DNA of 64,000 bases, taken from NCBI GenBank assembly GCA_964511305.1, contig CAZEEU010000001.1, forward strand, positions 127,214 through 191,213, written 5' to 3'. Position 1 is the first letter of the stretch. Every line of letters begins with the position of its first letter. The DNA is from an uncultured Gammaproteobacteria bacterium. Its GTDB lineage: Bacteria > Patescibacteriota > Microgenomatia > Levybacterales > GWA1-39-11. The notes under the pieces are model-generated. The model did not search any database. It was not told where the DNA came from and worked only from the letters and a program-made list of their open reading frames with translations. Made by a program: the position numbers and the translations under genes. Of this stretch, positions 34,852 through 53,534 are shown piece after piece.

Positions 34852-36090
34852 CTATTTACCTTCACTTTCATCTGGCCAAAAGTAAGCTGTTAAAAATACC
34901 ATAGTAAGATACCCTACGTGACTATTATTAAAATATCGAGACATATACCAATATACAAATACCAAAAGGCCATAGGAAAGAATTAAGATTTTTACTTTAG
35001 GATACTTACGTAAAAAGCCCAGCAAAATCACCAACACAGGAACCACAAAAAGCACTTGCCACAGAACGAATGGATAAGAGGAATTCAAGTCTTTAATAAA
35101 ACCTAATTGATGAAGTAGCATTCCCAAACCATAACCGGATATTGGATAGCTATGTGCAGTATTTCCTGATAGGTAAAAAACAGTACTATCAAGAAAAGCA
35201 CCCGGATTCCATAGAAAAAAGGGAATAACTAGGATGGCAAATGTTACAAAAAAAGAACTTAAACGAATCGTTGTACGACGAAGATTATCAGATACAAAAT
35301 ATATATAAGCAACATACAGCGGTATGAAAGGCCATATAGACTGCTTAACTGCAAAAGCAAGTGCTAGAAGAATTCCCGAAATGAGGTACTTCTTACGTGA
35401 TAATAGGATCATTGACAGAAAAAAGAATGCAAACATAAAAACGTCACTTCTGCCCTCTAAGGTATAAGCAAACATCGCAGGATTAAGCGCTAAAATACCT
35501 GTAAAAATAAGTTTTTGCTCTTTATCTTTTATGAAGTAAAAGGCACTAATACAAAGAGAAAGGTACAAAAAGAATAATGGAATACGACCATCAAAATACC
35601 CAATTGTATGATTTGAAATGTAATAAAACGGAAGTGAAAAGAGCAAATAAAATGGCATCATCACAAAATGGTACAGGGCTGGGTTAACTGCGGTATCACT
35701 ATAGTGCCACTGCGCCATAAACGTGTTGTGATATGTAGCTGCCCAAGGATTGATACCATCTAGGAAAAACCTTATTGCAGCCTCGAGTTGTAAGATAATA
35801 TCGTGGATCTGAAAAAGAGGTGCAACTTTGTGACGCACCATAATTGCTGAGATAAATGTACCCCCTACAACGAGTGCAAGAAGAGTCCAAAAAACAATGT
35901 ATTTAAAAAAGTAATACCTTTTTTCAGGCATCGGGACTATATCAAGTAAAAAATTGATAAATATTCCTGCAAATATCAAACCGAACTGGATGTAATTTGT
36001 GTCACCAGGAAAAATCTGATATGTCATTATCACGGGGATAAGAAGTGCCGCCAATATTACGCTGGACAAAGAAAGGCGCTGGTTTTTCAT
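34852..36090 (-). CDS. Polytopic membrane protein, possibly DUF2029/GT87-like GT-C
   Basis: 412 aa, about 10-11 TMs and no large soluble domain. It sits between the GT-C gene 32861..34849 downstream and a DPM1-like GT2 upstream. The family call is tentative. Confidence 0.65.
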   Translation of the reverse strand: MKNQRLSLSSVILAALLIPVIMTYQIFPGDTNYIQFGLIFAGIFINFLLDIVPMPEKRYYFFKYIVFWTLLALVVGGTFISAIMVRHKVAPLFQIHDIILQLEAAIRFFLDGINPWAATYHNTFMAQWHYSDTAVNPALYHFVMMPFYLLFSLPFYYISNHTIGYFDGRIPLFFLYLSLCISAFYFIKDKEQKLIFTGILALNPAMFAYTLEGRSDVFMFAFFFLSMILLSRKKYLISGILLALAFAVKQSIWPFIPLYVAYIYFVSDNLRRTTIRLSSFFVTFAILVIPFFLWNPGAFLDSTVFYLSGNTAHSYPISGYGLGMLLHQLGFIKDLNSSYPFVLWQVLFVVPVLVILLGFLRKYPKVKILILSYGLLVFVYWYMSRYFNNSHVGYLTMVFLTAYFWPDESEGK

Positions 36091-36815
36091 GAAGTAAATC
36101 GGTATTTAATAAGTGTCCACAGTGCTATTGTTCCATCATGTACAGGGCGAATCTTTTTACCCTCGTCGTATCCTCTTGGATTTGTTGTAATATCAAGTTC
36201 TAAAATGTGTATTCCTTTTTTTAGGATCTTCGCTGTAATTTCTGGCTCAAAGTCAAACGACCTTGATTTTAACTTAATCCCATCCAAAGCTGATTTTAAG
36301 AATAGTTTATATCCTGTTTCCATATCAGTAATGCTTTCACCATATAGAACTGAAGTGGCCATACTTAAGAATTTGTTCCCTATGTAATGAAATGGTAGAG
36401 GTGTCCTTCCTTTTCCGAATAAAACAACGTCTTGTCTAAGCCTTGTACCATAGACAACCTTTTCTTTACCATCAAGTATTGGCTTAAGAAGCATTGGAAT
36501 TTCAGTCGGATCATATTCAAGATCAGCGTCTTGAATAAGAAGAACAGATCCTTTAGCATTTTCAAAACCTGTAATAACAGCAGCGCCTTTCCCTTGATTT
36601 ACTTTGTGCTGGATGAATTTGATATTGGTTATTTTCTTCTTTTTCTCAGTAATCACCTGTGCAGATTTGTCTTTAGAACCATCATCTACCACGACAATTT
36701 CTATTTCTAGTTGCGGAATATTAAGCTTGTTCAGCTTATCAAGAACAATGCCAATTGTCTTCTCTTCGTTATATACAGGAATGACAATGGAAAGGAGTTT
36801 TATTGATGAATTCAT
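36087..36815 (-). CDS. GT2 polyprenyl-phosphate sugar synthase-like (DPM1/GtrB/CsbB-type)
   Basis: 'LSIVIPVYNEEKTIGIVLDKL…IVVVDDGSKDKS…HKVNQGKGAAVITGFENAKGSVLLIQDADLEYDPTEIP'. 242 aa, soluble. Confidence 0.9.
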   Translation of the reverse strand: MNSSIKLLSIVIPVYNEEKTIGIVLDKLNKLNIPQLEIEIVVVDDGSKDKSAQVITEKKKKITNIKFIQHKVNQGKGAAVITGFENAKGSVLLIQDADLEYDPTEIPMLLKPILDGKEKVVYGTRLRQDVVLFGKGRTPLPFHYIGNKFLSMATSVLYGESITDMETGYKLFLKSALDGIKLKSRSFDFEPEITAKILKKGIHILELDITTNPRGYDEGKKIRPVHDGTIALWTLIKYRFTS

Positions 36816-37741
36816 GCGATGTGATGTAAGAGCTCAACATCAGAACGTTGATATAATTTCTGCTGTATCTTACGTCTTTTCATTATAGCAGGTAACTTAA
36901 TCAGGGCAAGGAATAATCCTTTCAAAAAAGCTCTATCTCCACCCTTTATAGCCCGTAATATATGCAGTGGGAGTCTAATAATATGGCTTACTATTAGACT
37001 TGAGGAAGTGATATTTTTCCATGTAAATATGAATTGATTTCTATATGCTGCCGTTGTTATTCTCTCCTTTTTAAAGCCTGTAAGTATTGCACCCTCACCG
37101 TGATAGTGCTCAACAACTGACTCCTTATCAAAACAAATTCTATAACCAGATTTAACAGCTCTATATGAAAGGTCTATATCTTCCCAATAAAATGGGTTAA
37201 ATAGTATATCCATACCTCCAATTTTTACAAAAAGTTCTCTCCTTAAGATACAACTACCGCCGGATATCCAAAAGGTATCGGGACTCTCCTCATCGCCCTT
37301 ACTATGAACAATCATCCCACCTCTCCAGGAACCTATCCCACGGCCACGCTTTACCACCCTCTCCCCTTCATGACTCTCATCCATACACCCTATACCAAAA
37401 TATAAAGGGTCTGATTTCATCTTGTTCAAAAGACTCTCAAGAAAGTCCCGCTTAGGAACCACATCACTATTGAGAAGGACCACAAATTCTGCATGTGAAT
37501 GTGATACTCCCGTGTTAATTGCAGATGAAAAACCTTTGTTGTGCGCATGCTCAACAAGCATTATTTTTTTGCTTTTGAGGGAGCTTACAATTTCTCTGAG
37601 CTTTTTCTTATCTTCAAGGGTAGAACCATCATCTATTACTATAATTTTGCCTGTATAGTTCTCGTGCGCCAATAATACTTTTGGTAAGTTCTTTGCAAAG
37701 AGATGGGCTCCGTTATAGTTAGGTATTACAATATCAACCAT
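36812..37741 (-). CDS. Glycosyltransferase family 2 (rhamnosyltransferase-like subfamily)
   Basis: 'MVDIVIPNYNGAHLF…IIVIDDGSTLED…VVLLNSDVV…FYWEDIDLSYRAVKSGY'. The track ORF extends to 37810 and overlaps the YfhO-like gene by 68 bp. The internal Met at 37741 sits just before the 'IVIPNYN' motif and is the more plausible start. Confidence 0.8.
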   Translation of the reverse strand: MVDIVIPNYNGAHLFAKNLPKVLLAHENYTGKIIVIDDGSTLEDKKKLREIVSSLKSKKIMLVEHAHNKGFSSAINTGVSHSHAEFVVLLNSDVVPKRDFLESLLNKMKSDPLYFGIGCMDESHEGERVVKRGRGIGSWRGGMIVHSKGDEESPDTFWISGGSCILRRELFVKIGGMDILFNPFYWEDIDLSYRAVKSGYRICFDKESVVEHYHGEGAILTGFKKERITTAAYRNQFIFTWKNITSSSLIVSHIIRLPLHILRAIKGGDRAFLKGLFLALIKLPAIMKRRKIQQKLYQRSDVELLHHIA

Positions 37742-37742
37742 T

Positions 37743-40007
37743 TTAAAAAAGACTGTCCTTAAATAGTACAGTATGATTCCCGGCTTGAATATATACGCCC
37801 CGAAAAGCATGATTTGTCTTATAAATTTTTGTCAAATTACCGTCAATATACATTTTCCATGTAGGATAAAACGCGTCAGATAGAACTAAAAATCCAGCTC
37901 CTTTATTATAGGTATTAATCTCCACACTATTTTCAGAGTACTTTGTTATTATGGCGTCTCCAACGCTAAGATCTGCTTTATCTTCAAGACCTTCAACAAC
38001 AGCAGAGGATTTAAGATCACTTGAAAATATCTGCTTGATAGATTCATTAGCCCTAACAGTATTTTTAACAAAATAAGCTCGTGGATATGCATTAAGGTTT
38101 TTATATATCTTAGTCTCGCCTTCTTCAAAAACCTTTACAAGCTTAGGTGAATCAATTGGATCAATGGATAGAACAAAAGTCACGTTCATAAAGTCAAACA
38201 TTTGAGAATTGTAATTATGTGGGGTAATTATTCTATTAAATCCAAATGGCGGTGAGCTATTAGGTTTGTCTCTTTCCATTGAGGCAATATACTCAGCATA
38301 AGAATTAAGATATAAAGGATCATACCCCTCGATAGATTGGATTTTGTAATGCGTCAAAAAATTTGGAGCAAGTATTCTGTGATCCATCACAGCAACCCTA
38401 AATATTCCTTGCTGCGATTGTAAAAAATTTAACGATTTTGTTGTTGGATATAAATATTGAGCTTGAGAAAATGGAGTAAATTTTTGAGCAAACCTTAACA
38501 TATCAAATGATGTTAAAAGAAAGAGCACGCAAATTATAGAAAATCTTACTTTTTTGCTTTTTGTCAAAAAATTTATACTAATAATAATTGCACTGACCAA
38601 AAACAGACCAAATGGCAACATAAGATTTCTTAATGCAACCTTCGCCTGTTCTACGTGTCCAAGGAAAAATGAATTAGGAAAAATTACAAAATAAAATAAC
38701 ACGATAAAGCAAAGACCTACAAGCAGTATGGGAATAGAAGCCCTTTTTATTTGTAATCGCTCCGTTGTGATGTTGTTAAGCCCATACGCAGACAGCACCG
38801 CTAATCCAAAACATGCTAGAAATATCAGTCGTGTGGGTTGTGCACTAGAAAGGAATGGGATTGACGCAATAAAAGGCAATGCGGAAACCCCGGTCGGAAG
38901 ACTGAATACCAAACTAAGCAGAATTACTAACCCCATGAAAATGGTAGTTTTATTCTTTTTTGTGAATGCAAAAAATGCTAAAAGAAGAGGAATAATTCCA
39001 ATATACCCAACGAATTCTGCATAGTTAAAAACACCTACATAATTAAGGGTTGCAGGATTACCGAAATAGTCGGGAGCTATAAATTGAGCCAAATTTCTCC
39101 ATGGAATGAACCATCCTTCAATTTCATAAAATTGACGATCCGTCGCTCGAGCTGAATTTACAACAAACAATAACGCCGGATACCACTGAATAAAAGTTAC
39201 AATCCCAAAACCAAGGCAAATAAGAAGATACACCAACAAGGTCTTTACGTCCCTTCTCCATTTCAGAATAAAATAAGCGCATGCTACAAGAAATACATAT
39301 AAAAAAGATTGAGTATGTCCAGCAAGAAATGAGCTTGAGAAAGCCACAGTTATTACAAAGGCCCACATGTTCCTATTTTTGCGTGATGTAAGATGGTCTA
39401 TGCCTAAGAGAATAAGAGGCAGCCACAAAGCCGTATGCACTACGTTCCCCCATGTCAGCCAACTAACACAAAAGCCACAAAAGGAAAAAGCTAAAGAACC
39501 AAGCGCACAGGATGGCGAATTTAACTTTAAGTTCTTAAGGTATAAATACATAAAAAGACAAGCAAGTACTGTCTGAAGAACAATAAATACACCCCACGAA
39601 ATAGATATTGGGAAAATAAAGAACAATATATTAAGTGGGTAAAATGCTGAAGACTGTATATTGCCAACCAATGGCTTTCCTGTCATTTCATATGGGTTCC
39701 ATGATGGAAGCTCTCCTTTTTTAAGAATATTTACAGATAGTTCCTTCCATACATAAGTTTGTCTAACAGGGTCTGTTATAAGAAAGTTTTTAAAAGGAAT
39801 ACCTCGGGGATAATCACTGCTATAAAAATCTCTGAAGGGGTGATATAAACCAACTAATGAATCGGTAGGAATAGGTGCCCTGTTAAAAATTAAAAACGGA
39901 GAATAAAAAACAATAATAATAGCAGCTAGCAAAATGGGGAAGATTATTTTCTTTACTCTTACAAGAGTATCCTTAGTTACCATATAAGATGACTTAGCTC
40001 TTCGCAA
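37743..40007 (-). CDS. YfhO-family polytopic membrane glycosyltransferase-like protein
   Basis: 754 aa. N-terminal '…LPSWNPYEMTGKPLVGNIQSSAFYPLNILFFIFP…', then multi-TM, then the C-terminal '…DAFYPTWKMYIDGNLTKIYKTNHAFRGVYIQAGNHTV…' motif. Confidence 0.8.
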   Translation of the reverse strand: MRRAKSSYMVTKDTLVRVKKIIFPILLAAIIIVFYSPFLIFNRAPIPTDSLVGLYHPFRDFYSSDYPRGIPFKNFLITDPVRQTYVWKELSVNILKKGELPSWNPYEMTGKPLVGNIQSSAFYPLNILFFIFPISISWGVFIVLQTVLACLFMYLYLKNLKLNSPSCALGSLAFSFCGFCVSWLTWGNVVHTALWLPLILLGIDHLTSRKNRNMWAFVITVAFSSSFLAGHTQSFLYVFLVACAYFILKWRRDVKTLLVYLLICLGFGIVTFIQWYPALLFVVNSARATDRQFYEIEGWFIPWRNLAQFIAPDYFGNPATLNYVGVFNYAEFVGYIGIIPLLLAFFAFTKKNKTTIFMGLVILLSLVFSLPTGVSALPFIASIPFLSSAQPTRLIFLACFGLAVLSAYGLNNITTERLQIKRASIPILLVGLCFIVLFYFVIFPNSFFLGHVEQAKVALRNLMLPFGLFLVSAIIISINFLTKSKKVRFSIICVLFLLTSFDMLRFAQKFTPFSQAQYLYPTTKSLNFLQSQQGIFRVAVMDHRILAPNFLTHYKIQSIEGYDPLYLNSYAEYIASMERDKPNSSPPFGFNRIITPHNYNSQMFDFMNVTFVLSIDPIDSPKLVKVFEEGETKIYKNLNAYPRAYFVKNTVRANESIKQIFSSDLKSSAVVEGLEDKADLSVGDAIITKYSENSVEINTYNKGAGFLVLSDAFYPTWKMYIDGNLTKIYKTNHAFRGVYIQAGNHTVLFKDSLF

Positions 40008-41062
40008 AAACGTTCTTTGGTAAATCTTTTTGAAGAATCTATAGCATTTTGTTGAATTTTTACAAACAAATCGTGGTCAACGGCCACCTTATGGGTAGCT
40101 TTTATTAACTCTTCTTGAGTAGACCACAAAAATCCATTCTCATTATCCTTTACGATCTCCGGTTGCCCACCTGCATTTATTACGACGGGGACTTGCCCAT
40201 ATGACATTGCCTCAACAGTAGATATGCCAAAGTGTTCCGCCCTCTCTGGATATTTTGATAAATCTTCGCCAAAACCTGATGCATGCCAATAAATAGTGGC
40301 TTTTTTATATAGATCAACAATCTGCTTGTGATCTGCATTTCTGAAAAGTGTAATGTAGGAGCTTTTAATATCGGACTCAAATTTCTTATATGAATCGAGG
40401 TCCTCATCCTGAACGCTTGTAACAATTGCCATTTTCCAACCTTTTAAGCGCTTTTTTTGAAAAAGCTTAAATGACTCCACAAGCATTGCTAGCTTTTTAA
40501 AGTCAGTACCATTCGGAAGGATGCTAAATCTTCCTACTGTCAGAATAAGCTTTTCTTTATCGCCTAACTTTTCTCTATTTGTTGAAGCAGGTGGATATAG
40601 AACAAAACTACTTGCATTGAACTTCTTGTCAATAAAGCGCTTGGTAAAGTGAGAATTGCATATTATTTTTGAAATTCGCGATTTCCTAAATAAGAAAACA
40701 AAACTATTGGTATTTAACCATTCGACCGGGAATTGAAAATGGATAAGTAACTTGCAGGCGACAATAGGAATACTACCGTCAGAAAGGTATAGTATGCGAT
40801 CATATTTGAAGGTAGAAATAAAACGTTTTAAAAATGAGTTTTGCTTTGCAAAGATATTTGGAACAACTGTGACTTTTGAAAGATCCAAATCAAACTTTTT
40901 AGAAGCCATCTCCAAAATGCCAGGGTCATCCCAAAATATTGAGACTTTATGCTCAGATGAAAGACATGAAGCAGCAGTAAAAATATACTTCTCACCACCA
41001 GTTAATGTTTTTAAATATGGTGAATAAATTCCTATATTCATATTGCGAGAATTAAGTATCAA
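39977..41062 (-). CDS. Glycosyltransferase family 4
   Basis: 361 aa with '…AEHFGISTVEAMSYGQVPVVINAGGQPEIV…ENGFL', the EX7E motif. Confidence 0.8.
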   Translation of the reverse strand: MILNSRNMNIGIYSPYLKTLTGGEKYIFTAASCLSSEHKVSIFWDDPGILEMASKKFDLDLSKVTVVPNIFAKQNSFLKRFISTFKYDRILYLSDGSIPIVACKLLIHFQFPVEWLNTNSFVFLFRKSRISKIICNSHFTKRFIDKKFNASSFVLYPPASTNREKLGDKEKLILTVGRFSILPNGTDFKKLAMLVESFKLFQKKRLKGWKMAIVTSVQDEDLDSYKKFESDIKSSYITLFRNADHKQIVDLYKKATIYWHASGFGEDLSKYPERAEHFGISTVEAMSYGQVPVVINAGGQPEIVKDNENGFLWSTQEELIKATHKVAVDHDLFVKIQQNAIDSSKRFTKERFCEELSHLIW

Positions 41063-41162: not shown

Positions 41163-41408
41163 ATGAAAAATCCTGATCCACTTAGTTTTGCTCTTATCAT
41201 TCTTATTTCGGTTATACAGTTAACGATTAAAGGTTTTGCATTATGGAGAGCTTCGCAAGGCAAGCAAAGGAACTGGTTCCTTGTTCTTTTCGTACTTCTT
41301 CCAATCAACGAGTTTGGGATTGTAGAGATACTGTTCCTCTTTAAATTTGCCAAGAAAAAACTCACGCTTGCTGAAATCCAATCCTGGTTGAAGTTTGGAA
41401 AAAACTAA
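41163..41408 (+). CDS. Small 2-TM membrane protein (hypothetical)
   Basis: 81 aa with two clear hydrophobic helices (LSFALIILISVIQLTIKGFALW and WFLVLFVLLPINEFGIVEILFLF) and a Lys-rich amphipathic tail. It converges on the GT2 at 41405 with a 4-bp overlap. The competing antisense ORF 41241..41567 has no membrane or domain features. Confidence 0.45.
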   Translation: MKNPDPLSFALIILISVIQLTIKGFALWRASQGKQRNWFLVLFVLLPINEFGIVEILFLFKFAKKKLTLAEIQSWLKFGKN

Positions 41409-42157
41409 ACCTTCCTCTGTTGAAGCTCCCAAAGCTTTGCGTAAGTAATAAATATCGAAAATGCTTGGTACATACCCTCTATTAATCCGTATACGCCATT
41501 TTTGTATCCTTTGTTTTTTACATAAGAATTGATAAATTCTGTTCCCATGACTCTTAAAAAGCGCCATGGAGCAAGTTGTGGGTGCTTTGATTCAAGACGT
41601 AGCTTTGCTTCAAAAAGAGACCATTCGTTTGTTTTTCTTACCATTTGAGATAAATTTCTGTGCGTAAAGTGTTGTATAGGAGACTCAATTTGATCCATGG
41701 TCCCTTTAACTTTAGGTGTTTCATGAACAACACCTGACCACTCTATAAATTTTTTCCTATAAAATAACCGCTGAACGCGATCTCTAAAATTCCAATCTTT
41801 TCCATAGTAAAAAGTTTTTCGGTGAATAAAGTAGCCAGCTATTTCACTCGTTGGATCATATTGCTTAATTTTTAGAAGTGCTTCTTTTTTAAAAGCATCA
41901 GTTAGCCTTTCGTCTGAATCTAAAAAAAGTACCCATTCCGATGTGGCATGATACATCCCAAAATTCCTTTGATCTGAAAAGTCCTTAAATGCATGCCTAA
42001 CACTCTTAACTTTGTATGAGGTGCATATTTTTTCTGTATCGTGACTATTGCTGCCATCAATCACAATTACCTCCCCAAATCCACGACAAGAGGCTATGGC
42101 ATCTGGCAGAACATCTTCATCATTTCTTGAAATTACTACAACTGTTATATTATTCAT
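41405..42157 (-). CDS. Glycosyltransferase family 2 (WaaE/KdtX-like subfamily)
   Basis: 'ITVVVISRNDEDVLPDAIASC…VIVIDGSNSHDT…WVLFLDSDERLTD'. Confidence 0.85.
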   Translation of the reverse strand: MNNITVVVISRNDEDVLPDAIASCRGFGEVIVIDGSNSHDTEKICTSYKVKSVRHAFKDFSDQRNFGMYHATSEWVLFLDSDERLTDAFKKEALLKIKQYDPTSEIAGYFIHRKTFYYGKDWNFRDRVQRLFYRKKFIEWSGVVHETPKVKGTMDQIESPIQHFTHRNLSQMVRKTNEWSLFEAKLRLESKHPQLAPWRFLRVMGTEFINSYVKNKGYKNGVYGLIEGMYQAFSIFITYAKLWELQQRKV

Positions 42158-44487: not shown

Positions 44488-46176
44488 CTATTTTTTAATT
44501 CTTGAACTATATTTTTTATAGATAAGAGAACTGACAATTCCTGTTAGAAATATAAAAGCTACTAGTGAAAGAGCGTTTGAAAGCATCCTCAATTTTGTAT
44601 CAGTAAAAACTATTGAAATCTTATGAACCCCCGGATTCAATTGATAGGTTATAAGCCCTCTATTTGCAGGGTCTTGAAATTCAATATCAAGCTTCTTTCC
44701 ATTGTCAAATACTGACCACCCAGGAAAGTACAATGTGTTTTCCCGAATTCTACCCCCTGAGGTAGTGGTAATTAAATATTCATGATTTATCGATGTTCTT
44801 TTTATTTCTTGTATACTGCCAGTCCCCTCGATAACTTCGGCATTGGCCTTGGCCTCCCTCTCCATAAATCTAACGGACCAAATTGGGGAACTTTCTCCAG
44901 TGTCGGTCGTACCGTGGTAAATATTTTCGTAGAATGAATCCGGAATTACTTTGTATTCTTTTGCCTTCCAATAAGAGAACGTTGGCAAGATAGCAAATAG
45001 CATGAGGCATACAATAACCAACGTTCGCATTTTTCCCTTTTTAACAAAAAGCAAAGTGGAAGGGGTTATAACAGCACAAAGAAAAACCGATAAGCTTAAA
45101 AATCGCCAGGGGAACTGAAATTTCTTAAAAGTGGTAATTACGTCATATAAAAAGTTTGAATACGATAAAGTTAAAAATAATGATGCTGCCAACATAATAA
45201 GCAGACCCATAAAAAATGCCCGATATTCTTTTGACTTACTTCTTATAAATAACAATGGTACCAAAAGGATCCCAAGAACATTTACTAAGCCTATTTGTGT
45301 TGTAAATTGCCCTGTAATTCCATAGCTCCATGGTCCATACAGCAAAGACAACGGGCTAGTGATGAATCGAGTTTTATATTCATCCCCAGTTACGATATCT
45401 CTAAGGGTGAATTTGCCCTCTAAAAATGCAGGAATTACAAAAAAAGAAGAAAGTAAAAATCCTATTAAAAATGCTGAGAAGATAGGTATAAGCCTCTTGT
45501 ACTTTTGCTTACTTACGGCTAGAAAAAGTACGTACAATAAAAATACAGGACAGAACATTAAGCTAATCGCATTATGAGCTAGCAACAATAAACCAAATGC
45601 GCCACTTACACCCACAAGAGACCCACTTAGATATCTTTTATCAGAAAAGTATCTATGAATAAAAAACATTATCAAGGGAGGAAAGATAAATGCCATATGT
45701 TCTCCAATAGCACCTCTCACATAAAGGTCTATGAATCTATATGGCGCATACATGTATATTACGGAACTTATCAATGCATATTCCTCTCCAAACTGCTCCT
45801 TTACCCATAGATACATCGTTAAACCGCTTGCTACAAAGCCTAATGCAAAAATTATTTTCAACGAATCTACAAAAGAAAAACCAATTAGATGAAAAACGGA
45901 AGCAAAATAAGAAGAAAAAGGGTACAAAAACATGAGTACCGGGTGTCCATAACCCCAATTTAAATTTGCTCCCCAACGGGGGAACCATACTCCATCTGTA
46001 AGTCCCAGATAGAAATTAGCAATACGAGCCACATGATCAGTACCATCATGCGTAATAGGTAAACCCGGGGTTAATAGGTTAAATAAAGGTAGTAGACCCA
46101 ATAAAATAATAAGAAGCAAGGATTTATTTTTCATTCTTGATATATTATTTCCCAGGCATATAACTTCCCTTTCCAA
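44488..46176 (-). CDS. Polytopic membrane protein of the uncharacterised GT-C-like 'family X' (paralogs at 50178, 51879, 55215)
   Basis: 562 aa. N-terminal 'HDGTDHVARIANFYLGLTDGVWFPRWGANLNWGYGHPVLMFLYPFSSY…MYLWVKEQFG…YMYAPYRFIDLYVRGAIGEHMAF'. C-terminal 'TLYFPGWSVFDNGKKLDIEFQDPANRGLITYQLNPGVHKISIVF' with a terminal TM. Confidence 0.8.
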   Translation of the reverse strand: MEREVICLGNNISRMKNKSLLLIILLGLLPLFNLLTPGLPITHDGTDHVARIANFYLGLTDGVWFPRWGANLNWGYGHPVLMFLYPFSSYFASVFHLIGFSFVDSLKIIFALGFVASGLTMYLWVKEQFGEEYALISSVIYMYAPYRFIDLYVRGAIGEHMAFIFPPLIMFFIHRYFSDKRYLSGSLVGVSGAFGLLLLAHNAISLMFCPVFLLYVLFLAVSKQKYKRLIPIFSAFLIGFLLSSFFVIPAFLEGKFTLRDIVTGDEYKTRFITSPLSLLYGPWSYGITGQFTTQIGLVNVLGILLVPLLFIRSKSKEYRAFFMGLLIMLAASLFLTLSYSNFLYDVITTFKKFQFPWRFLSLSVFLCAVITPSTLLFVKKGKMRTLVIVCLMLFAILPTFSYWKAKEYKVIPDSFYENIYHGTTDTGESSPIWSVRFMEREAKANAEVIEGTGSIQEIKRTSINHEYLITTTSGGRIRENTLYFPGWSVFDNGKKLDIEFQDPANRGLITYQLNPGVHKISIVFTDTKLRMLSNALSLVAFIFLTGIVSSLIYKKYSSRIKK

Positions 46177-47062
46177 GTCTTCGAATAAGAAAATCCTTAA
46201 CTGCTATTTTTTGCCATGGGCGTCCGGTCAGCAAAATCCTGCCAGCCTCTTTTAGCAGCAACGCTTTTACTTTTGGACTGGCATATTTCATTCCAAAAAT
46301 TAATTTGTTTCGAGTTAGATAGTAATCGTGAAGCGTAGAACCTGAGCCTGAAGATCCTGCGTTATTGTGCCATACAATACCCTTTGGGGCGTATATAAGA
46401 TCGTAACCTTTTCTTATTAATTTCGTACTTAAATCTGCATCTTCATAGTATAAGAAGTAACGTTTATCAAATAACCCTACCTCATTAATGATATTTCTCT
46501 TCAAGAGTAAGCATGCTCCGGTCGCAAATGTAATTTTGCTTTTTTTGTCAAATTGACCCGCATCAACATCGTCTAATCCTATATGCGTTGAAACAACATT
46601 TCCCCAATCAATTTTTCCTCCTGCATACCATATAACCTTTCCGAGTTCTGTTTGCTTATAACGGTCTTTGTGATATTCTCTTCCTTTCGTAAAATAAATT
46701 TTTGGAACGACCCCGGCGATATTGTCAGGTATAATTTCATCAACCAAAACTTGGATGCAACTCATCTCTAACAAACTATCGTTATTCAGTAACAGAAAAA
46801 GGTCGCTGCCATCATTTCGAGTCCTCTCGTAAATCAAGTTATGTCCGCCTGTAAAACCTAGGTTTGTCTCGATTCGTTCGACAACAAGACCAATTTTTTT
46901 ATATTTAGAAACATTTATATCAAGCCTCTCCTTTGAACCGTTATCAAGGACATAAACACTCATTTCAAAACCATCAATTTTTGATTTAAGAAGCGTTTCA
47001 AGGCAATCAACCGTGTCTTGAGAGCTATTATAGTGAAGAATCGAAACGGTAACTTTATGCAT
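46145..47062 (-). CDS. Glycosyltransferase family 2 (rhamnosyltransferase-like subfamily)
   Basis: 'VTVSILHYNSSQDTVDCLETL…YVLDNGS…LLLNNDSLL…FDKRYFLYYEDADLSTKLIRKGY'. Confidence 0.85.
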   Translation of the reverse strand: MHKVTVSILHYNSSQDTVDCLETLLKSKIDGFEMSVYVLDNGSKERLDINVSKYKKIGLVVERIETNLGFTGGHNLIYERTRNDGSDLFLLLNNDSLLEMSCIQVLVDEIIPDNIAGVVPKIYFTKGREYHKDRYKQTELGKVIWYAGGKIDWGNVVSTHIGLDDVDAGQFDKKSKITFATGACLLLKRNIINEVGLFDKRYFLYYEDADLSTKLIRKGYDLIYAPKGIVWHNNAGSSGSGSTLHDYYLTRNKLIFGMKYASPKVKALLLKEAGRILLTGRPWQKIAVKDFLIRRLGKGSYMPGK

Positions 47063-47961
47063 TACGGTAGTACCTTTCGTTGGATTTTGTATATGTTTTT
47101 CTTCAATGAATTTTTTTCTTCTGTTATTTTTTTATCATACTTCCAATACCTAAATTCCCTTCCGATCATCTTTTGGCCCTCTATTAAAATTTTATGAGTA
47201 TTCTTATCCTCAGGATAATTGTTAGCCTCCCAAAGCCTTAGAAAAACTACAAAATGATAAAATGCCTGAAGTAAAGACAAGATAAGACCATGCATCCCAT
47301 CTCGGTAACCCTGTTTTGCAAAATATCGAGTTATAAATTCAGAAAGCGGCATCTTAACAGCATCAATTGATTTATATGCATATCCATTTGAAAGCAAGTT
47401 CTCTGCTTCAGAAACGGTATAAGTCTTGACCATTTTGTTCAAAAATTGTGAGATATTCTCGTAATTTAGATGAAGCATTGGATTTTCAAGCTGTGCCGTA
47501 GCCCCTTCTACTCGTAAAAATTCATGAACATGCTTTTCTTCAAATTTTCCTTTATCTTTCTTAAAAAGTCGAAGCTGTGGATCTGGATACCACCCAGTGT
47601 GCTCAATCCATTTTCCAAATATAATATTTTTTCTTGGTATGAAATATCCATTGACTGTTGACTCATTATCTAAGTGCTCAATTTCTTGTGAAAGCTCATG
47701 AGTAACCCTCTCGTCAGCATCCAAACAAAGTATCCAGCTGTTTGTGGCTTTTGTAAAACCATAATTTTTATTTACATTAAGCATTGGATTATTTGCTCGA
47801 GTAAATACAATCGCACCATTCTTTTTTGCAATTGATGCTGTATCATCGGCAGACGTGTTATCAACAACAATTATCTCTGCGGCAATTTTTTTGACAGAGC
47901 TGATACATTCCTCTATTTTTTTCTCTTCATTAAAGGCTGAAATAACAACAGAAACTTTCAT
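47062..47961 (-). CDS. Glycosyltransferase family 2 (WaaE/KdtX-like subfamily)
   Basis: 'VSVVISAFNEEKKIEECISSV…IIVVDNTSADDT…WILCLDADERVT'. Confidence 0.85.
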   Translation of the reverse strand: MKVSVVISAFNEEKKIEECISSVKKIAAEIIVVDNTSADDTASIAKKNGAIVFTRANNPMLNVNKNYGFTKATNSWILCLDADERVTHELSQEIEHLDNESTVNGYFIPRKNIIFGKWIEHTGWYPDPQLRLFKKDKGKFEEKHVHEFLRVEGATAQLENPMLHLNYENISQFLNKMVKTYTVSEAENLLSNGYAYKSIDAVKMPLSEFITRYFAKQGYRDGMHGLILSLLQAFYHFVVFLRLWEANNYPEDKNTHKILIEGQKMIGREFRYWKYDKKITEEKNSLKKNIYKIQRKVLP

Positions 47962-48009: not shown

Positions 48010-49467
48010 TCATTTTTTGGCTCTTATTGCTTTTACCACAAATACAAGAGTCTTAGTCAATTCTTCTCTTGCCATAAAGAACATTGCCCCGGCATACACT
48101 CCCAAAGACAGAATTCCAAAAATAACCATCATAAGAAAAGACGTAACAAAGACACTTGTGACATATGAAAATCCAAACATAAGAATGGCGGCTAAAAATT
48201 GCTTATAGGTTGTTGATATAGCTGAAAATTCAACATAACGTCTTGCAACAAAAAATACCCCAACTGAAGTAAGAGCAACTGCAAATGAAGCAGCAGCAAC
48301 ACCGTTATACCCCATGAGTGGGATGAGAATAAGCGTTGTGCCCCATATCATAATTGTCCAGAAGATCATGAAATACAACGTGACCTTGACCTTGCCAATA
48401 GCATTCAAAAAGTTAGTAAGAGGTGTAGAGACAGATGAAATTACGCTACCAAGAGAGAAGAACATTATTGACATAATTGCAGGTTCCCATTTGTGATAAC
48501 GCGGAATGAAATCTATCAGATAAGGCGAATAGGCAATGATTCCGGCAGCAACCGGAAAGATTGCAAAAGCTATCAGAAAGATTGACTTTTCGATAGCTAT
48601 TTTCAGAGCTGCTCTATCATCTTGTAGTCTAGCAAAAGATGGAAATGTGATTTTTATAATATTATCCATAACTAACCTAAGAGGAAGATAGGCTACCCGT
48701 TGAGCAAACCCGATATATCCAAGTTGTGCTTTTGGAAGTAGACCTCCCAAAAATATTGTTAAAAAATCATCCTTAAAAAGAGCTAGTATGCTGTTTGTCT
48801 GAAAAGGTATTCCAAATGAAATAAGACTTTTAAAAGATTTTTTGTCGAAGCCAAGACCTATCGGCCACGATTGCACCCCATAAGTCGCTACCAATCCGAC
48901 AATGCTTCTAAAAAGAACTGCCAGGATAAAGCTTGTTACACCAAGTCCTGAAATAGCGCATATTACGAGAGTTGCATTATATGTAATATTCTCAAGCACT
49001 TGAGGAACTACTAGTCTATTGTAGTCTAGTTTTCTTTCTAAAATAATGGTTGGAATTGTTCTGAGTGAGGTTAGGAAAAATGAAATGAGAAGTACAACAA
49101 GTAGGATATGCCCAGATTCACCCAACTTGTAAAAGGATGCAAGATTTCCAGACAAAAGGATTGCCGGTACTACAAGGCACAAAACGAGTGCCTGTTGAAT
49201 AGTAAAAACTGTTCGAAGATCTGTCTTGGTAGGCTCTTCTTTCTTCTGTATTAATGAAGCAGCAAGGCCTATATCCTGAAAGTAATTAAAGAAAACAATA
49301 ATTGAAGATACTACAAAAAATGTTCCGAAAGTCTCTGGCTCAAGATAAAGAGTGAGAACTACACTTGAGGCTACACCTAAAAGCTGTATAAGAAATGATC
49401 TGGAAACTAAAGCAAAAACCCCTTTTACAGATTTCGTCGCGATGGCATGCAATTCATTTTCGTCCAT
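48010..49467 (-). CDS. Wzx/MOP-superfamily flippase-like polysaccharide biosynthesis protein
   Basis: About 485 aa with about 14 hydrophobic helices. The track ORF extends to 49539 but would overlap the upstream GT2 by 56 bp. The internal start 'MDENELHAIATK…' at 49467 removes the overlap. Confidence 0.75.
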   Translation of the reverse strand: MDENELHAIATKSVKGVFALVSRSFLIQLLGVASSVVLTLYLEPETFGTFFVVSSIIVFFNYFQDIGLAASLIQKKEEPTKTDLRTVFTIQQALVLCLVVPAILLSGNLASFYKLGESGHILLVVLLISFFLTSLRTIPTIILERKLDYNRLVVPQVLENITYNATLVICAISGLGVTSFILAVLFRSIVGLVATYGVQSWPIGLGFDKKSFKSLISFGIPFQTNSILALFKDDFLTIFLGGLLPKAQLGYIGFAQRVAYLPLRLVMDNIIKITFPSFARLQDDRAALKIAIEKSIFLIAFAIFPVAAGIIAYSPYLIDFIPRYHKWEPAIMSIMFFSLGSVISSVSTPLTNFLNAIGKVKVTLYFMIFWTIMIWGTTLILIPLMGYNGVAAASFAVALTSVGVFFVARRYVEFSAISTTYKQFLAAILMFGFSYVTSVFVTSFLMMVIFGILSLGVYAGAMFFMAREELTKTLVFVVKAIRAKK

Positions 49468-49483: not shown

Positions 49484-50197
49484 TCATATCCTTTTATTGA
49501 GGATGTCAAACCACAAAATAAAACTTTCAAGTACTGCACGGACGACTACAGCTATATTTGCTCCGCTTTGAGCGCCATATTCACGAGGAAAGTGATTAAC
49601 TTCAACTTCTTTTATCTTCAACTTTTTCCTTGTTGCTTTTGCGAGTATTTCAGTTGTAATCATAGCCCCTTCAGAACGCAACGGCATAATTTGCAAAAGG
49701 GCTTCACGCTTGAACATTTTAAATCCACAGTCGATATCTTTAAAATAAAATCTGAAAAAAATGTAATCCCAAATCTTCAACATGTGCATAAGCATATGTC
49801 TGGACATACTGTCGCGTCTCTTTTTTCTAAAACCTATAACAATATCAGAGCCGGGAAGAGCCGCAATAAGTTTTTTAACCTCCGCGAAATCAAATTGTCT
49901 ATCACCATCCGTGAATACAACATACTTATATTTTGCATTTTCAAAGCCTTCCTTAAGAGCTGCCCCATACCCTCTATTTGGGGTGTGGCTGATAACACGC
50001 ACGTTCTTATATTTTTTTGAAAGCTCGAGGCCAATTTGATACGTCTTGTCTGATGAACCATCATCAATAATAAGAATTTCCCAATTTGTAGCAACTTCTT
50101 TAATAATCGGCATGGCATTCTCTACCACATGCTTTACGTTTTTTTCCTCGTTCCAAAAGGGGAAGAATACTGAGAGCTCAGGAAGTTTTTTTTCCAT
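49484..50197 (-). CDS. GT2 polyprenyl-phosphate sugar synthase-like (DPM1/GtrB/CsbB-type)
   Basis: 'LSVFFPFWNEEKNV…ILIIDDGSSDKT…HTPNRGYGAALKEGFENAKYKYVVFTDGDRQFD'. 237 aa. Confidence 0.85.
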   Translation of the reverse strand: MEKKLPELSVFFPFWNEEKNVKHVVENAMPIIKEVATNWEILIIDDGSSDKTYQIGLELSKKYKNVRVISHTPNRGYGAALKEGFENAKYKYVVFTDGDRQFDFAEVKKLIAALPGSDIVIGFRKKRRDSMSRHMLMHMLKIWDYIFFRFYFKDIDCGFKMFKREALLQIMPLRSEGAMITTEILAKATRKKLKIKEVEVNHFPREYGAQSGANIAVVVRAVLESFILWFDILNKRI

Positions 50198-51872
50198 ACG
50201 ATTTAGGTAACATTATACCAAGTAATATAGCAAAAAAAGCAAGTATTGATAGCACATTTCCGACCTTTTCTATGGTGGTTTGTCTGAAAGAAATATCTAT
50301 AATACCCTCCCCTTTTTGGACATTTATATCCATGCCGCGAGGAGCTTGGGTAATTATCCCAGTCTTACCATTTATAGTAGCGTACCATGCAGGAAAGAAA
50401 GCCTGATTGATATGTAAAATTCCATTGGTTAAAAATTTATATTTAATCTGGGTCCCCATTGTCTTCTTTGGAACCTCGGCAATGTATCCCGTGCCAACTA
50501 GTATCTCAAGTTTGGAAGAAGGAAGATCTTCGATGTTTTTTGGTTTGTTAAAGTCCTTTGGCATATATTCATCAGATATTTTTGAGGCAGTATATCGAAT
50601 ATAACTTTGATTTGTATAATATGAAGAATCAAAACTCGTATACTCTTGGGGATTAAATAGCTTCAAATTTAAGAGGATAGTCAAACAACAAATAGCAACA
50701 ACTACTAGAAGTCTTATATTCTGTGAACTTTTAACTACTATATAGGTTGTTCCATACCCTGAAATAATTGCTATTGCCAACGCTATAAAATTTATAAATC
50801 TCCACGGATACTGAATATACGCCATCAGCGGAAAATTTTCCCATACAGGTCCTGAAATAGATAAGCAAAAAAATGATGCAAGAGTCAAAATAACCAGAGC
50901 AACAATTGTTACCTTTTCATGTTTTTCAAATCTATGTTTTGTAAATCTATAACCTAACAGCAAAACTCCCAGCAGCAACAAAACAAGGTTTATTTTCCCT
51001 AATTTAAAACTAAGACCATCCAGACAGCCTGGCACTGATCCACCAAATCCCCACTGACTTTCCCAAAATTGAGAAATACAGACATAGTGATCCGCAAAAT
51101 AAGCGCCTCCACCAAGTTGGGACGAAACATTCGTATAACCCATCTCAAGAAAAGCTGGAATTACGTAAAATGAACTTAAAGCTATTCCCAAAACAATACC
51201 CCCAACAACAAGCAGTAGAAATCTTTTTTTATCTTGAGCAAAAAAAGTCATTGCTATAATTACAAATGGCAGAATTATAAAAAGCATGAGCAATGTGAGA
51301 TTGTGAGAAATTGCTACAAGAAAAATACCAAACGCAAGAACAAAAATTGCTGGAAACGAACGGAAAAAAGATTTACTTTTCTCAGAAAAGAGCATAAAAA
51401 GACCTAAAAGAATCATAGGCAGGAATGCATACGCAAATATCTCTCCAACTGCCCCTCTAACATATAGATTAAGCGCATGATAAGGAAAATAAGCATAAAC
51501 AATTGCACTTACAACACCTGCTGAATTCCCGAATAGTTTTCTACTCAATAAAAACATCGTAATTGGGGCCGCAAGCATTCCCGCAATAAGCATCACTTTC
51601 GTTGCAAAAAGAGAATCAAATCCAATTAGATTAATTAAGCCCCCAAAATAATAAGGAAAAGGTCCGTAAAAATTGAAGATTGGGTATCCATATCCATAAC
51701 CAAGATTTTCAACCCATCTTACCGGAAACATTCCGTGCAAAAGCGAGTTAGACATTTCATAGACTCGCACAACAGTAGTGTTATCGTGAAATGTAAAAAA
51801 ACCTGACTGAAATAACGGAAGGATAGTACCCAACGATAGCAAAATTACTCCGATTATTATTAGTTTTTTCAT
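50178..51872 (-). CDS. Polytopic membrane protein, uncharacterised GT-C-like 'family X'
   Basis: 564 aa: 'FHDNTTVVRVYEMSNSLLHGMFPVRWVENLGYGYGYPIFNFYGPFPYYFGG…YAYFPYHALNLYVRGAVGEIFAY' and the C-terminal '…FFPAWYATINGKTGII…' with a terminal TM. Confidence 0.8.
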   Translation of the reverse strand: MKKLIIIGVILLSLGTILPLFQSGFFTFHDNTTVVRVYEMSNSLLHGMFPVRWVENLGYGYGYPIFNFYGPFPYYFGGLINLIGFDSLFATKVMLIAGMLAAPITMFLLSRKLFGNSAGVVSAIVYAYFPYHALNLYVRGAVGEIFAYAFLPMILLGLFMLFSEKSKSFFRSFPAIFVLAFGIFLVAISHNLTLLMLFIILPFVIIAMTFFAQDKKRFLLLVVGGIVLGIALSSFYVIPAFLEMGYTNVSSQLGGGAYFADHYVCISQFWESQWGFGGSVPGCLDGLSFKLGKINLVLLLLGVLLLGYRFTKHRFEKHEKVTIVALVILTLASFFCLSISGPVWENFPLMAYIQYPWRFINFIALAIAIISGYGTTYIVVKSSQNIRLLVVVAICCLTILLNLKLFNPQEYTSFDSSYYTNQSYIRYTASKISDEYMPKDFNKPKNIEDLPSSKLEILVGTGYIAEVPKKTMGTQIKYKFLTNGILHINQAFFPAWYATINGKTGIITQAPRGMDINVQKGEGIIDISFRQTTIEKVGNVLSILAFFAILLGIMLPKSYGKKTS

Positions 51873-51878
51873 GATAAT

Positions 51879-53534
51879 TTACCTGAATTTCAAAAGAGGC
51901 CTTAAAAGCACAAACAATAAAACTAAAAACGTTAAAATGCTAACTCCGTTAGCTATTGCTCGTGGAAATGTTTCAATGAAAAATAGTTCAACAGAATCCG
52001 CATACTTGCCTGCGCTTATAGTCATAACCCCTTGAGGATTTTGGTAATCTATTTTTGTTTCTACCCCATTTATATATGCTCTCCATCCTGGATAAAATAT
52101 TGTGTTGATTTTAAATACCGTATCGCTCGTAGCAGTAAATTTGAATTTCACTGAATTTGAATTATAAACAGTATTGGAAATTGTAGCATTCCCACTCAGC
52201 ACTTCGACTTTGTCAGTAAAATGTTTGGTTGGCCTGTCTGTTACCCAAAGCGGCATCAATTCTTGCGAGCTTGTAGTCGTTGCTTCATTTGTTAAATAAT
52301 ATTGGTCCGAATAATAACTATATTTCACTGGCCGCGCATAAGGATACACCTGCGCAACAGCAACTATTGCCATGATAAATACTATTATCTTAATTTCTCT
52401 ACCTTCTATTACTAAAAACCCAGCGAGCAGAGAAGACAAAAATCCGAGTTGTGACAATAATGTCCACGGGTAATTAATTTCGGACAGAAGTGGCGTATTG
52501 GTCCAAATAAGCGATGATATTGAGAAAGTCCCAAGAAGGCAAATTACATAACTAAAAAGAATTATTATCGCAAACTTCTTAATAGGAGTCTGTATAAATT
52601 TAGACTTTATAAATGAGAATAAAAGAATAAAAAATGAGACGATAATAACCCCAATCTGTCCCAGTCCAAGCTGATAAGTAAATGCACCTTTTTCTGTCGG
52701 TGTACCATAGTCCCAAGACGGAATGATTAATTTATCAAATGGTACAAAATAGAGATTTCTGTCAGCAATAGGAATTTTTGAAAGTAAAATATTACTTTTT
52801 TCGTACAAAGCCGGGAACCAAAAAAAGAAAGAGAGCCCTGCTCCAAAAAATAAACACAATAAAAAAGTCTGCAGTACGTCAAATCTTTTTTCTATAAATA
52901 TTCGAATACCAATAAATAAAACAAGAACAGGCAGGAAGAGGATGGTCATAATATTATGAGTCATGACCAAAGCACCAATACTAACTGACAACATAAGGAC
53001 TGTAATTCGGGAGAAAGGGGACTCAAATAATCGTAAGGCAAAAAGTAATATGAACGGAAATAAAATCATAGCAATACTCTCCCCCACCGACCCTCTAACA
53101 TACAAATCTACCATTCTATAGGGTAGATATATGTAAAGAATAGAAGATACAATTCCCGACCATTTATTACTCCATAACTTACTGGATGCTAAATACATAA
53201 AGACAGAAGATAGCAGAACACTAAGTATAAAAAGTAATTTAATACTTAATATAAAACTATGAAGAAAAAGATTAAAAATAACGCCAATATAATAAGGCAT
53301 CGGATATGCGAAATTAAAAAGAGGATATCCATATCCAAAATTTAAAGCGCCGCTGTAACGAGGTGGGAACTGCATGTCTCGTAGGGTTCTGAACATATCG
53401 CCAAGCCTAACAACGGCCCACTCCCCATCGTGTGTTGGAAAATATCCTGAATTAAAATATGGAAGAATAACCGGCACGCAGAGAAGAAGAATTATTAAAA
53501 AAGGTAATGTCTGGAATAATAACTTTTTCAACAT
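51879..53534 (-). CDS. Polytopic membrane protein, uncharacterised GT-C-like 'family X'
   Basis: 551 aa: 'THDGEWAVVRLGDMFRTLRDMQFPPRYSGALNFGYGYPLFNFAYPMPYYIG…YIYLPYRMVDLYVRGSVGESIAM' and the C-terminal 'IFYPGWRAYINGVETKIDYQNPQGVMTI' with a terminal TM. Confidence 0.8.
   Translation of the reverse strand: MLKKLLFQTLPFLIILLLCVPVILPYFNSGYFPTHDGEWAVVRLGDMFRTLRDMQFPPRYSGALNFGYGYPLFNFAYPMPYYIGVIFNLFLHSFILSIKLLFILSVLLSSVFMYLASSKLWSNKWSGIVSSILYIYLPYRMVDLYVRGSVGESIAMILFPFILLFALRLFESPFSRITVLMLSVSIGALVMTHNIMTILFLPVLVLFIGIRIFIEKRFDVLQTFLLCLFFGAGLSFFFWFPALYEKSNILLSKIPIADRNLYFVPFDKLIIPSWDYGTPTEKGAFTYQLGLGQIGVIIVSFFILLFSFIKSKFIQTPIKKFAIIILFSYVICLLGTFSISSLIWTNTPLLSEINYPWTLLSQLGFLSSLLAGFLVIEGREIKIIVFIMAIVAVAQVYPYARPVKYSYYSDQYYLTNEATTTSSQELMPLWVTDRPTKHFTDKVEVLSGNATISNTVYNSNSVKFKFTATSDTVFKINTIFYPGWRAYINGVETKIDYQNPQGVMTISAGKYADSVELFFIETFPRAIANGVSILTFLVLLFVLLRPLLKFR

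Follow-up and report, generated by a model that had tools for sequence, protein, structure and literature searches.

Our analyses support an explanation of a long Levybacterial cluster of glycan genes in which a few soluble synthases of lipid-phosphate-linked sugars, together with Wzx-type flippases, would supply many membrane glycosyltransferases of the GT-C fold acting outside the cell, a reading to which we give a probability of about 0.6. The stretch of DNA analysed, hereafter the window, comprises 64,000 nucleotides (nt) of contig CAZEEU010000001.1, and it is most of one conserved cell-surface glycan super-cluster of the Levybacteria (Microgenomates, candidate phyla radiation, CPR). What we observed, and what this reading is built on, are the family assignments, the predicted fold, the conservation of acceptor-phosphate residues and of gene order, and the tight packing of the genes. 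The names of homologues put the organism in Candidatus Levyibacteriota. The mechanism is ordinary in principle, and what is unusual is its scale, its fixed triad of synthase, Wzx and GT-C genes, and its host lineage. An earlier note on this DNA had described short family 2 glycosyltransferase (GT2) genes accompanied by flippases and GT-C partners; all of the open reading frames (ORFs) that it named exist, on the minus strand and with the family character given to them.

In the scheme that we favour, three GT2s lacking transmembrane (TM) segments, here called dA, dB and dC, would dock at the membrane's cytoplasmic side through two interface helices and would transfer sugars from nucleotide-sugars to polyprenyl phosphate. 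The lipid-linked sugars would then pass to the outer face, for which two Wzx/MOP flippases are the sole candidates in the cluster, and the oligosaccharides that the GT4 and ordinary GT2 enzymes of the cluster assemble on lipid would probably cross likewise. A polymer or glycoproteins would then be built or decorated on the outside by at least 20 enzymes of the GT-C fold, drawn from five or six families, each donor being shared by many GT-Cs with different acceptors or linkages. What we infer in this scheme is the lipid acceptor, the identity of the sugars, the pairing of flippases with their cargo and the final acceptor. The synthase candidates and the flippases are the following:

49484..50197, minus strand: dA, TM-less ArnC/DPMS-like GT2 of 237 residues, candidate polyprenyl-phosphate-sugar synthase (Pfam GT2; ArnC nearest in the Protein Data Bank, PDB)
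36087..36815, minus strand: dB, TM-less DPMS/ArnC-like GT2 of 242 residues, candidate polyprenyl-phosphate-sugar synthase (Pfam GT2)
18280..19056, minus strand: dC, DPMS-like GT2 of 258 residues with DAG(L/M)D replacing the DXD motif (PfDPMS nearest in PDB)
48010..49467, minus strand: Wzx/MOP-family flippase directly downstream of dA (Polysacc_synt_3, E 8e-49; NCBIfam MOP flippase PRK10459, E 3e-38, full length)
19118..20404, minus strand: Wzx-like flippase, upstream neighbour of dC (Polysacc_synt 38.6 bits, Polysacc_synt_3 37.2 bits)

The 47 ORFs of at least 100 amino acids that were taken as genes in the window were scanned for Pfam and NCBIfam families, and dA, dB and dC each match Pfam Glycos_transf_2 far above threshold. 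They are the only three of the nine GT2s in the window that resemble polyprenyl-phosphate (Pren-P) glycosyltransferases, namely PfDPMS, ArnC and GtrB, across the entire catalytic domain. Compared with all solved structures, their nearest relatives are PfDPMS or ArnC, with GtrB close behind, and alignments to these Pren-P GT2s cover nearly the whole protein (residues 8-220 of dB, 6-210 of dA and 8-229 of dC), whereas other GT2 structures align merely over the nucleotide-binding first ~100 residues. The acceptor half, with its two interface (juxtamembrane) helices, is likewise homologous to that of the Pren-P enzymes. An AlphaFold model of dB, built from a 56-sequence alignment with a predicted local distance difference test score (pLDDT) of 85.5, places two helices at the site of the PfDPMS interface helices, and all 23 of its top Foldseek matches are ArnC, DPMS or GtrB, with PfDPMS and ArnC best. 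The description of the three as soluble DPM1/GtrB/CsbB-like proteins is thus borne out by sequence and by the predicted fold of dB, and the finding that the earlier note had named as speaking against itself, ordinary GT2s without a DPM1-like acceptor part, is not what the acceptor-half homology and the dB fold matches show. The choice of exactly these three is justified because the remaining candidate compared with structures (41405) is nearest to GmaR and SunS and the rest look ordinary by NCBIfam. From sequence and modelling we conclude that dA, dB and dC probably belong to the polyprenyl-phosphate glycosyltransferase clade, and we infer a lipid acceptor.

In a Kyte-Doolittle scan with a 19-residue window, dB has no TM peak, dC has a single above-threshold hydropathy peak near residue 179, within the catalytic domain, and dA has one near residue 212, in the region of the C-terminal interface helix. 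We read the peaks of dA and dC as not being membrane spans, and all three proteins as TM-less; by hydropathy, the C-terminal TM anchor of GtrB, ArnC, CsbB and PfDPMS is not present in any of them. Human DPM1 lacks TM helices as well. PpgS, an enzyme that the GacJ homologue Rv3632 stimulates, is also TM-less, GacI is a TM-less GT2 (PMC8035078), and PfDPMS deprived of its TM domain remains membrane-targeted and active (PMC5526996).

Residue roles were taken from published work on PfDPMS (PMC5526996) and ArnC (PMC12690121). The dA profile aligns with ArnC residues 7-211, and R124, R127, D129, R133 and R205 of dA, which are invariant in 24 homologues, correspond to R128, R131, D133, R137 and R205 of ArnC, of which R128 and R137 are the counterparts of PfDPMS R117 and R131; the Ser of the acceptor-phosphate set (PfDPMS S135, ArnC S141) is replaced by Met. 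In dC, the segment FYRKILS (FYRK(I/V)LS in the family) resembles the FYRKLIS of PfDPMS that includes R131 and S135; R131, S135 and the A-loop arginine are retained, and Lys stands at the R117 position. The equivalents of R117 and of the A-loop arginine are kept in dB, so that the latter (R202 / R205) is common to all three candidates. The metal and donor motifs DGDxQ of dA and DADLE of dB are kept in 120 homologues each. The second canonical Asp of the DXD motif is missing in dC only, not in dA or dB: about 100 of 120 homologues of dC carry D-A-G-(L/M)-(D/E) at this site, with a conserved acidic residue two positions after the Gly, at the site of PfDPMS Q93. Judged by these residues, dA appears the most secure of the three synthase candidates and dC a motif variant.

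Both flippases of the window are of the Wzx/MOP type. The GT-C genes that flank the synthase candidates, or lie close to them, are as follows, families A to E being our own groups of paralogues:

50178..51872, minus strand: GT-C, PTPS_related/YfhO-like (family C), overlapping dA by 20 nt (PTPS_related 44 bits)
51879..53534, minus strand: GT-C, family C paralogue (no Pfam match of its own; 29% identity over 550 residues to 50178)
53536..55170, minus strand: GT-C, PMT_2-like family A, with a WDE motif after the first TM segment, TM1 (PMT_2 49.4 bits)
44488..46176, minus strand: GT-C, PTPS_related family C (PTPS_related 47.6 bits, YfhO 29.6 bits)
42154..44472, minus strand: GT-C, YfhO family (YfhO 77.1 bits)
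37743..40007, minus strand: GT-C, YfhO family (YfhO 89.5 bits)
34852..36090, minus strand: GT-C, GT87/PIG-M-like, 412 residues, overlapping dB by 4 nt (no Pfam match of its own)

The Kyte-Doolittle scan predicts 24 polytopic membrane proteins in the window, with 8-14 TM segments and, in all 24, an Asp-containing motif directly after TM1. Twelve of these score above the Pfam gathering thresholds of PMT_2, YfhO, PTPS_related or GT-C_AftD and eight further ones are tied in by paralogy or profiles, giving 20 of 24 proteins in PMT_2, YfhO, PTPS_related, AftD-like and GT87-like families. By all-against-all blastp they fall into family A with six paralogues, B with three YfhO proteins, C with four PTPS_related proteins, E with three members, and an AftD-like pair; identities within groups are only 25-37%, which marks the paralogues as old duplications. 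Using profiles built from alignments enriched with related loci, hhalign joins families A, B, C and E with the AftD-like pair and 62491 in one network of 19 proteins, at probabilities of 93-99.7% (A with E, 99.6%; family C with YfhO, 99.7%; AftD-like with family C, 97.7%). Four polytopic proteins were not assigned to GT-C families: 7519, 12318, 13805 and 32861, the last reaching 76.5% with family E. Pfam searches (E up to 10) and NCBIfam searches with 3140, 7519, 12318, 13805, 32861, 34852, 51879, 25171 and 28070 gave nothing usable, and PDB profile searches with families A and C found no solved relative. For 34852, 23 of 42 aligned homologues match GT87, the others PMT_2, ALG3, Alg6_Alg8 or PIG-U; its profile finds glycosylphosphatidylinositol (GPI) mannosyltransferase 1 in PDB (E 4e-7) and family A by hhalign (93.6%). 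The neighbours of the short GT2s are therefore GT-C-type, as previously proposed, by their YfhO and PTPS_related Pfam matches and hhalign links, and the two proteins at 50178 and 51879, formerly left as a "family X", are a PTPS_related protein and its paralogue, homologous to YfhO (hhalign 99.7%). The placement of dB among GT-C genes likewise stands, with the amendment that its direct partner is 34852-36090, which the earlier note had not classified.

Within the window, chance alone would be expected to give a GT-C neighbour (permutation p about 0.45), and because 24 of the 47 genes are GT-C-like we rejected such adjacency as evidence; that both Wzx genes adjoin a Pren-P-type GT2 is unlikely by chance (permutation p about 0.013). 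For the pairing of these genes it is conservation across genomes, not adjacency in the window, that is decisive. A scan of GTDB species genomes yielded at least 337 dA relatives, and the 80 best loci were analysed with hidden Markov models from the window families; across these 80 Levybacteria species-level genomes dA identity is 60-92%, the nearest genome having 92% for the 49484 protein. Directly after dA comes a Wzx gene in 79 of 79 loci, and directly before it a PTPS_related (family C) GT-C gene in 77 of 78; gaps are at most 100 base pairs (bp) in 74. The association of GT2, GT-C and flippase genes is hence conserved at dA, rather than absent from related genomes, which had been suggested as grounds for abandoning it. 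Upstream of dB, 9 of 11 loci have the 36812-type GT2; downstream, all nine loci that show the neighbour have a GT-C of family A or E, and a GT-C is also found there in loci L007, L008 and L010 (related loci carry L numbers). The order GT4-Wzx-dC-GT4 is kept in the three diverged loci L012-L014 (3/3), and that of Wzx followed by two ordinary GT2s in most related loci. Outside the dA triad, cluster segments have been inserted, lost or inverted across loci. The order conserved in diverged contigs begins with GT2 (251 residues), MptA_B GT-C, PMT_2, further genes, PTPS_related, dA, Wzx, GT2 and GT2; continues with (PTPS_related, YfhO), GT2, antisense DUF5652, GT4, YfhO, GT2 and dB; and ends with a PMT_2-like array, further genes, GT4, Wzx, dC and GT4. 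A fourth short DPM1-like GT2 (251 residues), directly followed by the MptA_B GT-C, thus stands at the cluster start in L009-L011 and in many of L015-L094; this pair lies upstream of the region matching 62491-63999 and here would fall beyond position 64000.

The same genes could be accommodated in a conventional Wzx pathway, in which the short GT2s would extend a repeat unit on undecaprenyl diphosphate (Und-PP) together with GT4 and GT2 enzymes, Wzx would flip the oligosaccharide, and the GT-C-like proteins would be polymerases, ligases or transferases of the unit, or would use donors made elsewhere in the genome. Several observations fit this account or weigh against the supply of lipid-linked monosaccharides by dA, dB and dC. 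Wzx classically flips Und-PP-oligosaccharides, the flipping of monosaccharide-lipids by GacK or AglR being itself merely proposed, and both Wzx genes lie here among GT4 and GT2 genes. A GtrA-family or ArnE/F-type flippase has no Pfam or NCBIfam match among the ORFs of at least 100 residues and the 81-residue DUF5652 ORF, nor has a GacJ (DUF2304) partner any match in the window. Without a canonical DXD, dC has Gly in place of the metal-binding D91 of PfDPMS, and dB lacks clear equivalents of R131 and S135 (H/N stand there, with K147 and S150 close by). None of the three reaches an NCBIfam equivalog cut-off (for dA and dB the highest model, AglJ, scores below its own), and synteny inside one phylum partly reflects common descent. 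The conventional pathway has nevertheless to contend with the homology of all three proteins to Pren-P GT2s in the acceptor half, their phosphate-binding arginines and their best fold match. It also lacks matches to a priming phosphoglycosyltransferase (PF00953, PF02397), to Wzy or to an O-antigen ligase, both in the window and in those related 20-kb loci that have Pfam tables, although such genes could lie elsewhere in the genome. Moreover, PMT_2, YfhO, GT87 and AftD-type enzymes use lipid-phosphate-monosaccharides (PMC8035078), for which some supplier is needed. On balance we consider the conventional pathway unlikely as an account of the whole cluster. At dC the matter is more even: the earlier note had placed this gene next to a flippase, and a Wzx does adjoin it, but no GT-C is directly adjacent in the window, and its conserved GT4-Wzx-GT2-GT4 block is just as compatible with an ordinary repeat-unit pathway dependent on Wzx.

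With a G+C content of 35%, the window is densely filled with glycan genes. Between 55170 and 13805, 32 genes follow one another co-directionally on the minus strand, and 27 of their 31 junctions overlap or have gaps of at most 30 bp; the sole large gap, of 342 bp (41062-41405), contains an antisense DUF5652 gene. Promoter and terminator scans of 36000-55400 gave a signal not above shuffled expectation, and for this reason no operon boundaries are claimed from them; Rfam and tRNA scans of the whole window found nothing. This layout bears on the proposal of repeated three-component modules, in which each short GT2 would have its own flippase and GT-C in a unit present three times over. The PTPS_related-dA-Wzx triad, tight and nearly invariant, has that form, and dC too adjoins a Wzx. 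However, three synthases, two flippases and at least 20 GT-Cs do not make iterated 1:1:1 modules; in none of the loci examined does dB (36087) adjoin a flippase, and dC has no adjacent GT-C in the window. Nor do the supposed repeats behave independently, since they always occur together, as fixed segments in a fixed order within one conserved co-directional super-cluster. The three GT2s themselves share only ~30% mutual identity while each is 60-90% identical to its own orthologues, which identifies them as ancient distinct families and not as recent iterations. We regard independent modules as very improbable.

Among known systems, the closest variant is the GacI/GacJ/GacK/GacL type, with its TM-less GT2 and Wzx, alongside AglD/AglR/AglS in archaea. 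GacI/J/K/L of the Streptococcus pyogenes group A carbohydrate, a "type b" multi-component transmembrane glycosylation system (PMC8035078), likewise combines in adjacent genes a TM-less GT2 making a C55-phosphate-sugar, a proposed Wzx-type flippase and a GT-C acting outside. Here, in contrast, no GacJ/DUF2304 was found, the sole conserved small membrane gene being the antisense DUF5652; the host belongs to the CPR; and three or four synthases accompany at least 20 GT-Cs, where Gac has one of each. In Haloferax volcanii, a dolichol-phosphate-mannose synthase of the GT2 family, the Wzx-like AglR and a transferase dependent on dolichol-phosphate-mannose outside the cell form a similar series, AglR being proposed as the flippase of this lipid or its assistant (PMC3871713), but there the host is an archaeon, the carrier is dolichol, a single final sugar is added to an N-glycan and the genes are not all clustered. 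The analogy originally drawn was with CsbB/GtcA/YfhO, GtrA/B/C and ArnC/ArnE-F/ArnT. Their logic of Pren-P-sugar synthase, flippase and GT-C fits, YfhO and PMT_2 (ArnT-like) proteins occur here, and ArnC is nearest in sequence to dA; the flippases do not fit, being Wzx/MOP here (nearer to GacI/J/K/L) and GtrA-family or SMR-like ArnE/F there, and CsbB, GtrB and ArnC have two C-terminal TM helices where the GT2s described here have none. In Lactococcus lactis, CsdAB/CsdCD/CsdEF resemble our cluster in that several GT2 + GT-C pairs share fewer flippases (CflA), but those pairs are dispersed, 1:1 and served by a GtrA-type flippase, whereas here the ratio of GT-Cs to synthases is ~6:1 in one cluster.

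The ratio of three to four synthases to at least 20 GT-Cs, together with the AftD, GT87 and MptA_B families, is closer to mycobacterial arabinan and mannan assembly than to 1:1:1 modules. In the synthesis of mycobacterial arabinogalactan, lipoarabinomannan (LAM) and lipomannan (LM), a few polyprenyl-phosphate donors (decaprenyl-phosphate-arabinose, DPA, and polyprenyl-phosphate-mannose, PPM, with Ppm1 as a synthase) feed many GT-Cs (Emb, Aft, Mpt, PimE, GT87), and AftD-like and GT87-like proteins occur here and MptA_B-like ones in relatives. The mycobacterial counterpart of the TM-less synthases is the soluble synthase domain of the Ppm1 type. Unlike in mycobacteria, the GT-Cs are gathered in one co-directional cluster of a ~1 Mb genome with Wzx embedded, and YfhO and PTPS_related proteins dominate, so that the likeness is one of logic and family, not of orthology. 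A more far-reaching version of our scheme, which we offer only tentatively, would see here a conserved super-operon of more than 64 kb in ~1 Mb genomes, a mycobacteria-like and almost entirely extracytoplasmic line with three to four donors from TM-less synthases and at least 20 GT-Cs, in which the dA-linked Wzx is a dedicated flippase of polyprenyl-phosphate-monosaccharides. If this were true, dA-Wzx would be the clearest comparative-genomic case for a role of MOP proteins so far merely proposed for GacK and AglR.

CPR/Patescibacteria envelopes are essentially uncharacterised, and their epibiotic cells rely on contact with the host surface. If our reading is correct, ~6-7% of a reduced genome would be given to one cluster that builds surface glycans extracellularly from few lipid-linked sugars, with an exceptionally large complement of GT-Cs. 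The fixed unit of GT-C, TM-less synthase and Wzx would provide a test bed for the flipping of polyprenyl-phosphate-monosaccharides by MOP/Wzx proteins, as proposed for GacK and AglR. For annotation, three widespread CPR families of "glycosyltransferase family 2" could be proposed as polyprenyl-phosphate-sugar synthases, and the Pfam-less families of 34852, 51879, 25171 and 28070 as GT-Cs. In the literature we found no paper describing this cluster, and searches on YfhO or GT-C in CPR/Patescibacteria returned none; CPR genome papers mention merely multiple copies of "dolichol-phosphate mannosyltransferase" or GT87.

Pfam and NCBIfam assign nine of the 47 ORFs to GT2 and three to GT4, and they recognise sugar-nucleotide tailoring enzymes (DegT, GNAT, epimerases and methyltransferases). 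Beside the three synthase candidates, the glycosyltransferases of the central region are:

36812..37810, minus strand: ordinary GT2 of 332 residues, upstream neighbour of dB (Pfam GT2; NCBIfam rhamnosyltransferase/EpsD-like)
39977..41062, minus strand: GT4 glycosyltransferase (Glycos_transf_1)
41405..42157, minus strand: GT2 of GmaR/SunS-like type, not of Pren-P type (GmaR and SunS nearest in PDB)
46145..47961, minus strand: two ordinary GT2 genes, 305 and 299 residues, downstream of the Wzx gene 48010 (Pfam GT2)

Three short GT2s (24373-25146, 41405-42157 and 47062-47961) form a separate group. All three were considered as Pren-P synthases, because 41405 shares 4 nt with the YfhO gene 42154, which it overlaps, and were rejected in this role: the structural relatives of 41405 are GmaR, which transfers O-linked N-acetylglucosamine to flagellin, and SunS/ThuS, that is, protein or peptide glycosyltransferases, while 24373 and 47062 were grouped with it by NCBIfam profile alone, 41405 being the sole one compared with solved structures. 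The order of a YfhO gene followed by a 41405-type GT2 recurs among relatives. The resemblance to GmaR and SunS (by structure for 41405, by NCBIfam profile for the other two) is in keeping with a cluster devoted mainly to protein O-glycosylation, whose PMT_2-like GT-Cs would decorate S-layer, pilin or other surface proteins while the donor logic remained unchanged. Further hints in this direction are the (W/L/N/E)DE motif that every one of the six family A paralogues carries directly behind TM1, Pfam PMT matches in relatives, and a match of the 48010 Wzx to the NCBIfam O-glycosylation flippase model (E 3e-22, below its cut-off). Enzymes of the PMT/ArnT type have a similar Asp-Glu motif just after TM1. 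PMT_2 is nonetheless a broad family that also includes transferases for lipid A and polysaccharides, the AftD-like, GT87-like and MptA_B-like members point to polysaccharide building, and no acceptor protein was identified; we think protein O-glycosylation rather unlikely to be the main function.

The remaining features of the window are the following:

1256..6786, minus strand: two AftD-like GT-Cs (1256 and 3451) flanking the ORF 3140-3454 (GT-C_AftD 27.2 bits)
3140-3454, minus strand: ORF of 104 residues with four predicted TM helices and no family match, between the AftD-like GT-Cs 1256 and 3451
12318-13808, plus strand, and 13805-15274, minus strand: family D, convergent polytopic pair of ~490 residues, 37% identical, no Pfam match
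21453-21818, minus strand: "23S rRNA intervening sequence protein" (PF05635, bAvd-like four-helix bundle) inside the glycan cluster
22838..34849, minus strand: array downstream of dB, with GT-Cs of families A and E (22838, 25171, 26815, 28070, 29585, 31258), the GT2 24373 and a probable GT-C, 32861 (PMT_2 matches, blastp paralogy)
41163..41408, plus strand (antisense): DUF5652 small protein of 81 residues with two TM segments, in the sole large gap (Pfam DUF5652, E 7e-14)
55215..63999, mixed strands: further GT-Cs, PTPS_related 55215 (plus), YfhO 56845 (plus), family A 59165 (plus) and 60864 (minus), and PMT_2 62491 (minus) (Pfam, blastp, hhalign)

The antisense position and orientation of the DUF5652 gene are kept in at least 53 of 80 related loci, and its product could act with the TM-less GT2s as their membrane partner, or the gene could mark an internal promoter region. 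The ORF 3140-3454 abuts 1256 with no gap and overlaps 3451 by 4 nt, and its size and topology recall small lipid-sugar flippases or GacJ-like activators. For family D, hhalign gives merely 51% with GT-C family E, and an AlphaFold model from a 2-sequence alignment is unusable (pLDDT 45), and 12318 and 13805 may be GT-C or Wzy-like; L012 and probably L013 have a similar convergent pair of ~495 residues, also without Pfam matches. The PF05635 gene holds the same place in L012. At the other end, where the PMT_2 gene 62491 extends past the window, the three GT-C genes of 55215-60874 (PTPS_related, YfhO and family A) are on the strand opposite to the rest of the cluster, an arrangement common to L015, L018 and L019, whereas the PTPS_related-YfhO-A block at the corresponding site is co-directional in L016, L017 and L021, which suggests an inversion or duplication inside the array.

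About half of the 80 related metagenome-assembled genome (MAG) records are titled "uncultured Gammaproteobacteria bacterium", whereas their gene content and similarity to named Levybacteria identify them as Levyibacteriota; these titles look like a labelling error of bulk submission.

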